DNA from: an uncultured Armatimonadetes bacterium
GTDB taxonomy: Bacteria; Armatimonadota; UBA5829; DTJY01
DNA length: 64,000 nt
Reading direction: 5' to 3'
Assembly (NCBI GenBank): GCA_963717145.1
Contig: OY970325.1
Location: 4,480,001-4,544,000, forward strand
Part shown: piece by piece, positions 26,937 through 29,900 of the stretch
How the letters are laid out: every line of letters begins with the position of its first letter
How positions within the stretch are numbered: position 1 is the stretch's first letter
Made by a program: the position numbers

Positions 26937-29900
26937 TACCGGTCCGTGCTGGAAACGGAACTCCCGCGCGCCGGATTCCGACTCGACCAGGATGTTCGTG
27001 CCGACGATGTCGGCGGGCATCAGGTCGGGCGTGAACTGGATGCGCGAGAACTGAAGCTCGCACGCCTCCGCGAGCGTCCGGACGAGGAGCGTCTTGCCGA
27101 GGCCGGGGACGCCCTCCAAGAGCGCATGGCCGTTCGCCACCAGGCAGATGACCACGCCCTCGACGATCTCCGACTGCCCGACGATGACCTTCGATATCTC
27201 ATCGCTGAGCTGCTTGAAACACTGATTGAACTGAGCTACTCGCTCTTCGGCTTGCATGATACCTCCCTGAACATGCAGGAGGGATTTGCCGGGATGGTTT
27301 GTGCCCGGTAATCCCGAACGCGCAACGATCGGTGTTCGGGATTACCGGGCACAAACCATCCCGGCAAATCCCTCCTACATGTCTATTCCAAACTGCTGAA
27401 ATAATCCTTGACCCTGTTCCGGTACGCCGGGGGGACCTTCTCCTTCGAGAGGGCGCTCTCGGCCGACTTCTTGTAGTTCGAGTACACATCGGTATACGGC
27501 ACTGAGGCGGGCGATGAGAGGGTGGGAGCGCCCTTCGACTCACCGGCTGAGAACACCTGACCGCTCTCGCCGAGCATCGACGGCGAGTGGGAGATGTCCT
27601 TCACATCGTTGAGCTTGCCCTTCGGTCCGGTATTGGCATCGTCTCCGCCCCTGCCCGATCCGGGGCCGCCCTTGCCGCTCGGGCCTTGACTCTCGCCGTC
27701 CGTGCCCTTGCCGTCCTTACCCGTCATTCCGCCAAGGCCGGATGCGATCGATCCGCTTGAGCCGCTCTGACCGAGCGAACAACTTGCGCCGCTTCAAGTG
27801 CCGCCCGCATGTTTGAGCGCCTCCGCGAGCTGCTGCTGGCTCTGCATCTCCTTGGTCATCTTCGCCAGCTCTTCGGGACTCATCTTTGCCAATCTCTCGG
27901 CGTTCTCGCGCATCATCTTCGCAAGCTTGTTCAGGTCCGTGCCCTTCAGTGCCTTGGCGAGCGCATCGAGCTGCTTTTGGAGCGCCTCACGGTCGGCCTC
28001 TTTCATCTGACCGCCCTGCGCCTTCTGGGTGAGCTTCTGCATCAGCTCGGACGCCTTCTTGAAATCCTCGTTCTCCGCGAGCTTGGCAAGTGCCTCACCG
28101 AGTTCCTTCGGGATCGCGAGACTGCTGTTCGGGTTGGTGTACTTCTCGACCGCCTTCTCGAGTTCCTTGCGCTCGGACTCGGTCAGCGGCTCGGACTTCT
28201 GCGCGAGTTCGGCCATCCGCTTGTCGGACGCCAGCTTCCTGAGCGCCTCAGCCGGCGGAATATTCTGCTTCTCCGCCATCTTGCGGGCCATGTCCCTCGC
28301 GAGTTCCTCCGCCGCCTTCTTCATCTCGGCCTGCGCCTCAGCCATCGACTTAGTGGTCGAGTTCTCCTTCGCCAGGCGATCCTGCTCGGCCTTGATCTGC
28401 TTGTTCAGGCGCTGGGAGCTGATCATCGCTTCCTTCTTCGGCATGCGGCCGGTCTGCATCTTGCGCCCGAGGTCGTCGAGCTTGCCTGCGAGCTTCTTCA
28501 AGTCCTTCTGTCTGTCGCCGGCCCGCTTTTCGATCTCCTTGCTGATCTTGAGGAGTGTCGCTCCCTCCTGCTTCATCGTCGCGATATCCTGTTGACGCGC
28601 CGGCGAATTGAAGCGGGCCATCTGCGGGATGAAGGTGACCCCGAGCAGCAGGACGACGGCCGCGAGGAAGGCGACGTGCGGCGGGCCGAATCGATGGCGG
28701 AAGACCTCCGACGCCTTCAGCCCCGAGAAATGCTCGTTGGCATCCGTGACGAGCGCCTGTTCGAAGTCAGTAGGGAACGCCCGGGAACCGACCCTCACCC
28801 CCGACCCCTCTCCCTCAGAAGGGCGAGGGGAGACCGCCCCCCCTCGCCCTTCTGAGGGAGAGGGGTCGGCGAAGGCGATGGCGGTCGAGAGCCGCTCCTT
28901 GAGGCCGGTGCGCTTGTCGGCGGCGATGGCGACGGTGAGGTCCCTGAGCGGGCGAGTCAATGCGAAGGCGCACCCGCCGAGTATGCCCGCGATCACCGTC
29001 GAGAACCAAATGCGGTAGTCGAGCAGCGAGGTCACCTGTGTTGACAGGATCACCATGCACGTGGCCAGGACCGCTCCCACTCCGCCGCCGAAGAGCCCGT
29101 ATCGCTCGATCAGCAGGAGCCGGACCCGCCGTCGCAACCGCCATATCTGACTATCGAGACCTTTACTGTCCACTGCTCACCGTTACCTTGCCCGTGACAC
29201 CGTAGGGGCGATCCTTCTACGGTCGCCCGTGGAATCGCAGAGAGTGCACGGGCGACCGTAGAAGGATCGCCCCTACGGTGTCCGCAGCCTCAGTATTGCT
29301 CTTCCTGCACCCCGCCGCCTGACTTCCGCGCAACCCAGGGGGCGGCGGCAAGAAGCCCGAGCGTCAGGGCGGCATAAAACCCGCTGACCAGCATCCACGA
29401 CAGATCCTTGGGCCACCAGAGTTTCGGCATGGTCGGGGACCACCCCTGAGCCTCCACGATGAGCGGCGTCACCGGCCAGAACGCGGCCAGTTGCCAGATC
29501 ACTCCCGATGCCCTGGAGAGCCCGAAGTTGTAGTTGGCCAGTATTATCGCATAGCCCGCGAACATCATGATGATCGCGACGACCGCGACTACCACCGCGT
29601 TTCGTCTCAGCTTGACGACTGCCGATGCGAATATGGATATCGCGGCCATTGCGGCTGCTACAGTCACGCATACTGCCCCGATCTTGTAGACGCTGAGCCA
29701 GTTCGCATGGGTCATGTGCGTATGCGTAGACCCGACCGACCAGCGGAGCGTGAGGCCGAATACCACATACTCCAGTATTGCCCACATCAGGACGAAGCAG
29801 AACGCTCCCGACATCTCGCTCTTGAACATCTTGCGGGGATCCAACAGGCCCATTATGCTCGGCTTTCCCCCCTGCGCCGGCATGCGACCGGTCGCGAAGA

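Follow-up and report, generated by a model that had tools for sequence, protein, structure and literature searches.

The bacterial selenoprotein families with C-x-x-U or U-x-x-C sites that were defined by computation and catalogued in 2026 (PMC13188914 Table 1) have one UGA-encoded selenocysteine (Sec) and have Cys homologues in the same column. A bSECIS-type hairpin follows the UGA within the coding region, and the genomes that hold these families contain SelA, SelB and SelD. The bSECIS constraints are an apical loop of 3-9 nt, a stem of 4-16 bp, G in the first two loop positions, a distance of 16-37 nt from the UGA and an MFE of -7.5 kcal/mol or lower (PMC13188914 Fig. 2 legend). The gene analysed here lies in a 64,000-nt stretch of DNA from an Armatimonadota genome, which is called the window, and shares these features with the catalogued families. 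It differs from them in that its product is predicted to be an all-helical membrane protein with three membrane helices rather than a protein with a thioredoxin-like fold. It also differs in that its Sec forms have G-x-x-U and not C-x-x-U, which is no canonical redox motif, while its Cys forms have C-x-x-C and the partner Cys is variable. One genus has two Sec sites, which are separated by 15 residues.

No such family is listed among the 119 families of PMC13188914 Table 1, in agreement with the genome-wide survey's note, from which this analysis starts. Outside the cd models and a few entries that have no representative sequence, the gene matches no Pfam or NCBIfam model of these 119 families. 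The note had also reported that Pfam, NCBIfam and PDB give no match, and repeat searches have the same outcome: Pfam has no match for the gene, NCBIfam gives nothing over the cut-off in 27 family members, and the PDB, searched by sequence and by fold, yields nothing beyond chance matches and helical repeats of designed proteins. The NF049953 model has no match at the locus, and PADLOC has none for the protein. Literature searches on selenoproteins in Armatimonadota, on selenoproteins or selenocysteine with MoxR or DUF58, and on newly described selenoprotein families do not find this family, and supplementary lists (e.g. PMC12013277 Table S2) could hold further candidates. The label SelX, which the note uses for this gene, is not a published name. 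The family contains 1070 representatives at E<=1e-30, and its TGA form is common in Armatimonadota, being carried by 39 of 251 sampled genomes of this phylum.

The gene neighbourhood resembles the Bat, or MoxR-DUF58-VWA, clusters. Bat proteins were once proposed to act on the periplasmic redox state (background section of PMC3557215), and work on Leptospira biflexa did not confirm that they have a protective redox role (PMC3557215). The present gene is located directly upstream of the genes for MoxR, DUF58 and two VWA proteins, one of which has a BatA-type N-terminus, but its product is not a described Bat protein and has no match to the models of the Bat families. The DUF4175 family (PF13779, TIGR02302) of low-complexity membrane proteins may be similar in having N-terminal membrane helices and a long low-complexity helical region and in being encoded near MoxR/DUF58 genes. 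Membership of this family is unsupported, because PF13779 has no match at the locus even at E<=10, and the one ESM Atlas structure row named 'DUF4175 fragment' has TM-scores of 0.32 and 0.46, both of which are below 0.5. A TolA-like architecture is shared as well, consisting of a membrane anchor, a long charged helical region, a Gly-rich linker and a small C-terminal domain, and a match to tolA_full (E 0.003) in one member of the family is weak and driven by composition. However, significant similarity to TolA is detected neither in sequence nor in fold, and the present protein is predicted to have three membrane helices instead of one and a bundle instead of a rod.

Gene structure and selection downstream of the TGA codon

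The features of the gene are as follows.
27383..29173, minus strand: whole gene of 596 codons and a TAG stop, with a GTG start and one internal TGA; orthologues align end to end
27794..27796, minus strand: UGA codon 460, probably read as Sec, in the motif KHAGGT-U-SGASC; this column is common to 33 loci
27779..27781, minus strand: Cys465 (U+5), candidate partner thiol
27386..27571, minus strand: conserved C-terminal segment, residues 535-596, with the pattern GAP...SVPY...AE.AL..E.VP..YR..VK.YF.SL and invariant Y591 and F592

Two ORFs are annotated at this locus, one of 459 aa at 27794..29173 and the other of 114 aa at 27383..27727, both on the minus strand. When TGA is translated as U, a single frame of 596 residues is obtained, and its sole interruption is the TGA at codon 460 (window positions 27796-27794). 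The proposal of the note that the 459- and 114-codon ORFs represent one 596-aa gene, with the UGA in KHAGGT-U-SGASC, is therefore borne out. On comparative grounds, it is very likely that 27383-29173 is one gene encoding a 596-residue selenoprotein, and codon 460 is very probably decoded as Sec. Among the DNA contigs of four soil-metagenome runs, one (X4, record 18) aligns without gaps over 27395-28783 with approximately 92% identity, a result that bears on this span and not on the state of the TGA. Of the sequencing runs listed as containing the stretch, none is an RNA run.

Gene prediction programs divide the gene in two or cut it short, and 79 of 91 database matches stop at the residue preceding the TGA; the note had described most entries as truncated there, with 76 of 86 being partial. 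An ATG is present 22 codons past the TGA, and TGA is normally used as a stop in these genomes, being the true terminal stop in 13 of 33 of these genes. These observations are those expected if the TGA is an ordinary stop, in which case a 459-residue membrane protein would be made, with or without a second, small protein from the C-terminal part. However, the C-terminal domain is in frame in all 33 loci, 103-193 codons downstream of the TGA, and not a single TAA or TAG is found between the TGA and this domain over 25 different linker lengths. The interruption itself is never TAA or TAG. The Cys-form homologues are continuous proteins, and their translated sequence includes a homologous counterpart of the stretch from the TGA to the first ATG. 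The post-UGA dN/dS values of seven pairs range from 0.05 to 0.24. Together with the near confinement of the TGA forms to SelA-holding genomes, which is described below, these results make an ordinary stop highly improbable.

Residues at the TGA column

An in-frame TGA is found in one motif in 16 of the 23 relatives' loci that hold the gene (61 genomes searched). The note had found one in-frame TGA in 10 of 12 relatives with the gene, in one column in the eight relatives that were aligned; the counts depart somewhat from those of the note because more genomes are sampled here. The motif (A/C)GG(T/G)-U with TGA is read at the sequence level in 33 loci of Armatimonadota genomes. U is present in 19 of 19 further loci, which were chosen because a TGA was listed for them, at the codon-460 site in 17 and at a second site in two.

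The residue that replaces U in relatives is Cys, usually within C-x-x-C. Cys is found in the U column of G038, for which the note had already reported it, and also of G041, G103, G111 and G254, as well as in that of the database proteins P0010, P0012, P0013, P0015 and P0083. C-x-x-C is located at the Sec site in five full-length database matches, as the note had stated and as is re-derived here independently. Among 114 full-length representatives, 42 have Cys at the Sec column, against an overall Cys frequency of 0.59%. In contrast, 53 of the 114 have no Cys within 12 residues of the site, and the site is therefore dispensable for the core function of the family. The position of the Cys nearest to U shifts among the loci (U+3, +5, +6, +9, -4, -6 or -7), and one locus, L073, has no Cys near U.

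Selenocysteine machinery and the hairpin downstream of the TGA codon

The genome that contains the window also contains SelA, SelB, SelD and a tRNA-Sec (70.6 bits; ARAGORN anticodon tca), all four of which are recovered independently of the note that had named them. SelD of this genome is itself Sec-containing (GGG-U-GCK). Among the relatives, SelA is present with 16 of 16 TGA forms and with neither of the two close Cys forms (G038 and G041). In the 251-genome sample of the phylum, SelA is present in 38 of 39 TGA-holding genomes, as compared with 51 of 112 family holders for which no TGA is listed (a further figure is 45 of 100). The only TGA-holding genome that lacks SelA is 61% complete.

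These distributions also bear on the possibility that the UGA is read through by a standard tRNA (a near-cognate tRNA for Trp, Cys or Arg) and not as Sec. Leaky read-through of UGA occurs in bacteria. However, read-through by a standard tRNA does not need SelA, with which the TGA forms are almost always found, and both close Cys forms are in genomes without SelA. The replacement of U by Cys in relatives and the presence of a bSECIS-type hairpin at a fixed distance argue against a standard tRNA as well. It is therefore very hard to credit that a standard tRNA reads this codon.

The candidate hairpin of the window copy is as follows.
27762..27778, minus strand: SECIS-like hairpin UCGCUC-GGUCA-GAGCGG, -8.4 kcal/mol, with its loop at +25..+29 when counted from the UGA (first base U); it fits the four bSECIS constraints

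An uninterrupted stem scoring at least 6, with the loop at +20..+34, is found in 30 of the 33 loci, as compared with 5.5% of the in-frame control positions elsewhere. The hairpins of 26 of the 33 loci agree with the published bSECIS model in its four constraints, and each of the other seven departs from one of them, three in energy and four by a spacing of 15 nt. The stems differ and are unrelated between clades. In the close relatives, the consensus hairpin is 90% paired, and it has 8 bp and three compensatory pairs, as the note had stated and as is re-derived here, although this covariation in the closest relatives is confounded because the conserved codons for ALGQC encode the hairpin. An Rfam search finds no SECIS family; it gives only sub-threshold microRNA-like matches on two palindromic repeats.

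The comparative features of a bacterial selenoprotein gene, namely a conserved TGA, Cys homologues, co-occurrence with SelA, a downstream frame under selection and a bSECIS-type hairpin, are all seen for this gene, and they support its assignment as a selenoprotein gene. According to this assignment, SelB and Sec-tRNA(Sec) would recode UGA460 under the direction of the short hairpin with the apical loop GGUCA, which lies 21 nt downstream. If the codon were not recoded, translation would end at residue 459 and the conserved C-terminal segment would be missing.

State of the window copy

The hairpin of the window copy has a stem of 5-6 bp, one pair of which is G-U. It is the weakest among the close relatives and its register is shifted. 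A hairpin of this kind is matched by 10% of control positions, so that it is nothing unusual for a GC-rich gene; its energy is at the 28th percentile, and the 53-nt stretch that contains it has z = +0.64 versus shuffles. In addition, the window copy has SLGQS where ALGQC is found in most orthologues, so that the Cys at U+9 is lost, and the coding region contains an insert.
28790..28869, no strand assigned: palindromic repeat element of approximately 80 nt, in-frame insert at residues about 104-130, in the predicted cytoplasmic loop; it folds at -94.5 kcal/mol

The weak and shifted hairpin, the lost Cys and the repeat would all fit a real selenoprotein family of which the window copy is decaying, with its full-length product lost. 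However, all 596 codons are open apart from the single TGA, and the post-UGA region is under purifying selection when compared with G001 and G006 (dN/dS 0.18-0.24). A new Cys is present at U+5, the hairpin is still within the four bSECIS constraints and the Sec machinery is intact. An insertion is also present in G001 at the same loop, indicating that this place tolerates insertions. Decay of the window copy is thus quite unlikely, and a gene for the 596-residue selenoprotein is the preferred reading.

Predicted membrane topology

The predicted membrane segments are as follows.
28952..29104, minus strand: two predicted transmembrane helices (residues 24-46 and 54-74) that form a hairpin, following an Arg-rich N-terminus
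28622..28684, minus strand: predicted third transmembrane helix, residues 164-184

Hydropathy and an AlphaFold model (pLDDT 71), which has helices at residues 3-43, 53-73 and 164-184, suggest that the protein is anchored to the membrane by three helices. The model is all-helical, and its helices are packed as a bundle and do not form one rod. At U460 the model has a low confidence of 57-67, and residues 471-562 are disordered. Lys and Arg residues number 5.8 on average ahead of TM1 and 0.1 in the loop that joins TM1 to TM2. The flanks of TM3 have 3.0 before and 3.7 after the helix, values that do not settle the topology.

According to this topology, the Arg-rich N-terminus would be cytoplasmic and would be followed by the two-helix membrane hairpin. 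A conserved cytoplasmic loop of approximately 90 residues, with invariant R88, R94, S96 and D144, would come next, and then the third membrane helix. The last approximately 410 residues would be located outside the cytoplasmic membrane, with a helical domain that extends up to the Sec site, then a tether rich in Gly and finally a pair of conserved helices at the C-terminus. The helical domain with the Sec/Cys site is probably extracytoplasmic.

Gene neighbourhood and possible function

The neighbouring genes are as follows.
26259..27257, minus strand: MoxR AAA+ ATPase (AAA_3), the next gene downstream
24335..25237, minus strand: DUF58 (VWA-like) protein, in the same gene string
19060..23754, minus strand: two proteins with VWA domains, of which the first has a BatA-type N-terminus
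29290..33984, minus strand: three ABC-2 type permeases and an ABC ATPase, upstream

The gene is followed directly by that for MoxR in 21 of 24 loci, including those of relatives with only about 25% identity, and the last ABC-2 permease is upstream in 16 of 24; the note had counted seven of nine and eight of nine loci, respectively, and both neighbours are found again in the larger set. In addition, 22 of 23 genomes with the DUF58 orthologue also hold the selenoprotein family. This conserved association with MoxR and DUF58 across distant relatives is that expected of a component of a Bat-like MoxR-VWA set. A complex prediction of DUF58 with residues 1-190 gives a score of 0.00 with the verdict 'no answer', which bears on neither side.

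Tentatively, Sec, or C-x-x-C in the Cys forms, may be the redox-active site of a protein of the cell envelope whose partners would be the products of the MoxR/DUF58/VWA (Bat-like) genes just downstream. That the same residues instead form a metal-binding site of such a protein is a doubtful possibility. It is a speculative and rather unlikely proposal that the family is the missing redox-active envelope subunit of Bat-like MoxR/DUF58/VWA machines, in which reducing power would be sensed or passed on by the Sec (G-x-x-U) or the dithiol (C-x-x-C), carried on a flexible tether outside the cytoplasmic membrane, and in which the UGA would act in addition as a selenium gate. If the selenium gate were true, only a 459-residue anchor without the conserved C-terminal domain would be produced when selenium is lacking. 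If the envelope redox subunit were true, the repeated exchange between C-x-x-C and G-x-x-U would represent the replacement of a dithiol by a single selenol.

Implications

The family is a well-supported addition to the selenoprotein catalogue, and it is unusual in being predicted as an all-helical membrane protein and not a thioredoxin-like enzyme. Most public entries of the Sec form are short by about a quarter and have lost the conserved domain, and a family model in which the Sec column is marked would mend hundreds of annotations. The role of the MoxR-DUF58-VWA operons has been elusive ever since the Bat operon was described, and the probable Sec/Cys site provides the first functional clue for a very large uncharacterised family that is tied to these operons.

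Two reading frames form one gene

Two ORFs of the window were joined in the genome-wide survey's note into one gene for a 596-residue protein with a UGA at codon 460.

27794..29173, minus strand: ORF of 459 amino acids with a GTG start, in the same frame as the 114-residue ORF
27383..27727, minus strand: ORF of 114 amino acids, in the same frame as the 459-residue ORF

This gene is real. When the TGA is read as U, 27383-29173 encodes 596 residues in one frame with a single internal TGA at codon 460, in the context ...ALKHAGGT-U-SGASCSLGQS..., and ends at a TAG. The selenocysteine (Sec) interpretation is supported, at the level of sequence, by the TGA column, the Cys counterparts, the co-occurrence of SelA, the downstream frame with its dN/dS and the hairpins, while topology and function are predictions.

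The C-terminal motif (...VK.YF.SL) is located in the frame of the TGA at all 33 TGA-form loci, 103 to 193 codons downstream of it with 25 distinct distances, and neither TAA nor TAG intervenes at any of them. The dN/dS of the post-TGA region is 0.05-0.24 (seven pairs), and the Cys-form homologues, which have Cys at the same alignment column, are uninterrupted proteins. A genuine TGA stop terminates 13 of the 33 TGA-form genes, indicating that TGA does not generally serve as a sense codon in these genomes.

Conservation of the TGA codon

By a six-frame search, the gene is detected in 25 of 61 related genomes, and 23 gene-length loci were reconstructed, excluding L034, of which only the C-terminal part matches inside an 876-residue frame, and L035, a weak match (5e-4). 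An in-frame TGA with the same motif, AGG(T/G)-U, is present at 16 of these 23 loci, and Cys occupies the Sec column within C-x-x-C in the relatives G038 and G041, in agreement with the single TGA column and the Cys of G038 reported previously. The 16 loci include those of G052, which has frameshifts upstream as well, and of G054, which is distant (26% identity) and misaligned by MAFFT, yet contains GGT-U. Five distant loci have neither TGA nor Cys at the Sec column; one of them, in G053, has AGGTC nearby.

When 251 genomes sampled across the phylum Armatimonadota are searched with a profile, the family is detected in 151 and a TGA within the match in at least 39, a lower bound, with 64 weaker matches beyond those listed. 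Twenty loci of this sample were fetched. U is present at all 19 listed with TGA, at a second site in two of them, and the only one listed without TGA (G103) has GKACRS-C-QQAGAC, compared with KKAGGT-U-LSAGAC in its genus-mates. In genus g78 of the sample, L064, L065 and L066 contain two in-frame TGAs at a distance of 15 codons, GGT-U-KGSGRGHRPHFGFG-U; in L067 and L071 the first site is Cys and the second is U, and L068 has only the first site (ECGT-U). The difference between C-x-x-C in Cys forms and G-x-x-U in Sec forms is recurrent: it is seen between L021, L023 and L058 and their relatives, and the five full-length database homologues for which C-x-x-C had been claimed (P0010, P0012, P0013, P0015 and P0083) indeed have it at the Sec site, where P0011 has a deletion. 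The first Cys of C-x-x-C is found only where the second position is Cys, in three separate lineages.

Sec machinery

The window genome is a single contig of 5.37 Mb, and selA, selB, selD and tRNA-Sec, all previously claimed to be present, are found in it: tRNA-Sec (70.6 bits; anticodon tca by ARAGORN) is adjoined by the SelA gene, SelB has a winged-helix domain, and the SelD gene (L041, G000:C1:4140327-4141253, minus strand) has an in-frame TGA (GGG-U-GCK) and is itself a selenoprotein gene. A stem-loop, GCGCAG-GUU-CUGCGU, lies ~30 nt past the TGA of selD. The organism is able to decode UGA as Sec.

SelA is above the Pfam cut-off in all 16 TGA-form genomes, compared with 41 of the 61 relatives overall, and is absent from both close Cys-form genomes (97% and 91% complete). 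In the phylum sample, SelA is present in 38 of the 39 TGA-holding genomes among the matches listed, the exception being 61% complete. By comparison, it occurs in 51 of the 112 genomes that hold the family with no TGA listed, and in 45 of 100 that lack the family. Relatedness makes the genomes non-independent in these co-occurrence counts, although the TGA forms come from no fewer than 15 of the sample's family-level groups.

Hairpin downstream of the TGA

The 8-bp hairpin with three compensatory pairs described in the survey's note is seen again in the ungapped alignment of the 15 closest TGA forms, with a helix at +17 to +35 from the U of UGA and a GGU loop at +25..+27. In this helix 90% of the cells are paired, and compensatory change occurs at three pairs, in a single sequence for each; this is matched by 3 of 500 shuffles, and pairing in slid controls is 23-49%. 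This covariation count is confounded, because the conserved codons ALGQC also form the helix. Stronger sequence evidence for a hairpin is provided by the distant clades, in which the post-U peptide differs (LSAGACALDARQW, GSCGDKQRSAE, KGSGRGHRPHF, TGLLSALGGG). An uninterrupted stem scoring at least 6, with its loop centre at +20..+34, is present at 30 of the 33 loci, compared with 5.5% of the remaining in-frame positions in these genes, and the stem sequences are unrelated among the 33 loci. The energy of +9..+48 is below the gene mean at 32 of 33 loci, in the best 5% at 14 and in the best 10% at 19. All five second-site TGAs have a hairpin of their own, each in the best 3.1% by energy.

The legend of Fig. 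2 of PMC13188914 gives four bSECIS constraints, covering apical loop (3-9 nt), stem (4-16 bp), G in the first two loop positions, distance from the UGA (16-37 nt) and MFE (-7.5 kcal/mol or lower), and 26 of the 33 loci pass all four. The other seven fail either in energy (three; -6.6, -6.6 and -7.1 kcal/mol) or in spacing (four; 15 instead of 16 nt). The hairpin of the window gene passes all four.

27778-27762, minus strand: hairpin UCGCUC-GGUCA-GAGCGG, register shifted relative to relatives, spacing 21 nt, -8.4 kcal/mol

It is unremarkable for a GC-rich gene: 10% of control positions match it, its energy ranks at the 28th percentile, and its 53-nt stretch gives z = +0.64 against shuffles. The UGA is very probably decoded as Sec.

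Family size and annotation

Most public entries had been claimed to be truncated at this codon, and 79 of 91 matches in a collection of 5.8 billion proteins stop exactly one residue before the TGA; the source names of the database homologues are all 'hypothetical protein'. Among 1.84 billion representatives searched with a profile, 1070 match at E<=1e-30 and 5455 at E<=1e-10; coiled-coil noise may be included among the weaker matches. The best 150 representatives comprise 114 full-length proteins, 29 truncated at the pre-TGA motif and 7 fragments of other kinds. Among these 114, Cys is present at the Sec column in 42 (overall Cys frequency, 0.59%) and within 12 residues of the site in 61, with none in 53, and C-x-x-C in 20. 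In the ESM Atlas, a natural Cys homologue is surrounded by unnamed clusters from Planctomycetota, Armatimonadota and Verrucomicrobiota.

As previously stated, the family has no match in Pfam, NCBIfam or PDB: the window protein matches no Pfam family, among 50 representatives 48 lack any Pfam match and two have sub-threshold chance matches, none of 27 members reaches an NCBIfam model, and PDB sequence search and Foldseek give no match. Table 1 of PMC13188914, a review of May 2026, lists 119 families, nearly all with a domain model, and contains no counterpart of the protein, as had been noted; the words MoxR, von Willebrand and Armatimonad are absent from the text of this review. The 172-position model of 'Hypothetical protein DG' (NF049953) does not match the locus. 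Literature searches of the main texts of articles give no description of such a protein. The family is very probably a new selenoprotein family, with unusual architecture and context, and is systematically mis-annotated.

Gene neighbourhood

By Pfam assignment, the genes upstream on the same strand encode three ABC-2 type permeases and an ABC ATPase, and those downstream encode a MoxR AAA+ ATPase (AAA_3, 3e-63), a DUF58 protein and two VWA proteins, of which one has a BatA-type N-terminus and the other is 979 residues long. MoxR, previously described as a conserved neighbour, is immediately downstream at 21 of 24 loci, including those of homologues of ~25% identity; at one of the other three (L016) the contig ends 300 nt past the gene. 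The ABC-2 permease is upstream at 16 of 24 loci, only among closer relatives. A DUF58 orthologue is present in 23 of 61 relatives, of which 22 also hold the selenoprotein family. The Cys-form gene of G038 is at ~2.29 Mb together with MoxR, and the best DUF58 orthologue of this genome is at ~4.63 Mb (L050 / L086), indicating that the gene set is not always contiguous.

Two ORFs between MoxR and DUF58, at 25780-26439 and 25309-25722 (both minus strand), have no family match; the former overlaps the 3' end of MoxR by ~180 nt, so that it probably starts later or is no gene. Two further ORFs (487 and 340 residues; 33997-36404, minus strand) that precede the ABC ATPase are without a match in Pfam, NCBIfam or PADLOC. 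A near-perfect palindrome of ~80 nt (28790-28869; -94.5 kcal/mol) lies in frame inside the selenoprotein coding region (residues ~104-130) and has 70 genome matches on both strands, corresponding to about 35 copies; at this site metagenome contigs break off and depth rises ~50-fold. A second palindromic repeat family (27271-27358; -51.9 kcal/mol; 78 genome matches on both strands) fills the intergenic spacer that separates the selenoprotein gene from MoxR.

Protein model and possible function

The AlphaFold2 model, built from 27 aligned sequences (mean pLDDT 71), is all-helical, beginning with a membrane hairpin of helices 3-43 and 53-73. Short conserved helices follow at 78-102 and 136-157, then the third hydrophobic helix, 164-184, and a helical domain, 191-470, whose final helix carries U460 (local pLDDT 57-67). 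The segment 471-562 is Gly-rich and disordered, and two terminal helices span 565-595 (pLDDT ~80). The mean number of K+R across the alignment is 5.8 on the N-terminal side of TM1 and 0.1 in the loop that joins TM1 to TM2, suggesting that the N-terminus and the 75-163 loop are probably cytoplasmic; the charges flanking TM3 do not settle the topology. Given three membrane helices, the last ~410 residues are probably outside the cytoplasm.

For Bat operons (MoxR, DUF58, BatA-E), a role in keeping the periplasm reduced has been proposed, but was not confirmed in Leptospira biflexa, as described in PMC3557215. The position of the partner Cys varies, and roughly half of the family lacks Cys at the site altogether; both findings argue against a classical catalytic redox center. 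Redox activity of the Sec or dithiol site is a tentative possibility and metal binding by it a less likely one, with a His-rich second-site variant in genus g78. The protein would be an envelope-exposed subunit of a MoxR/VWA machine, and its Sec or dithiol site would be redox-active or metal-binding.
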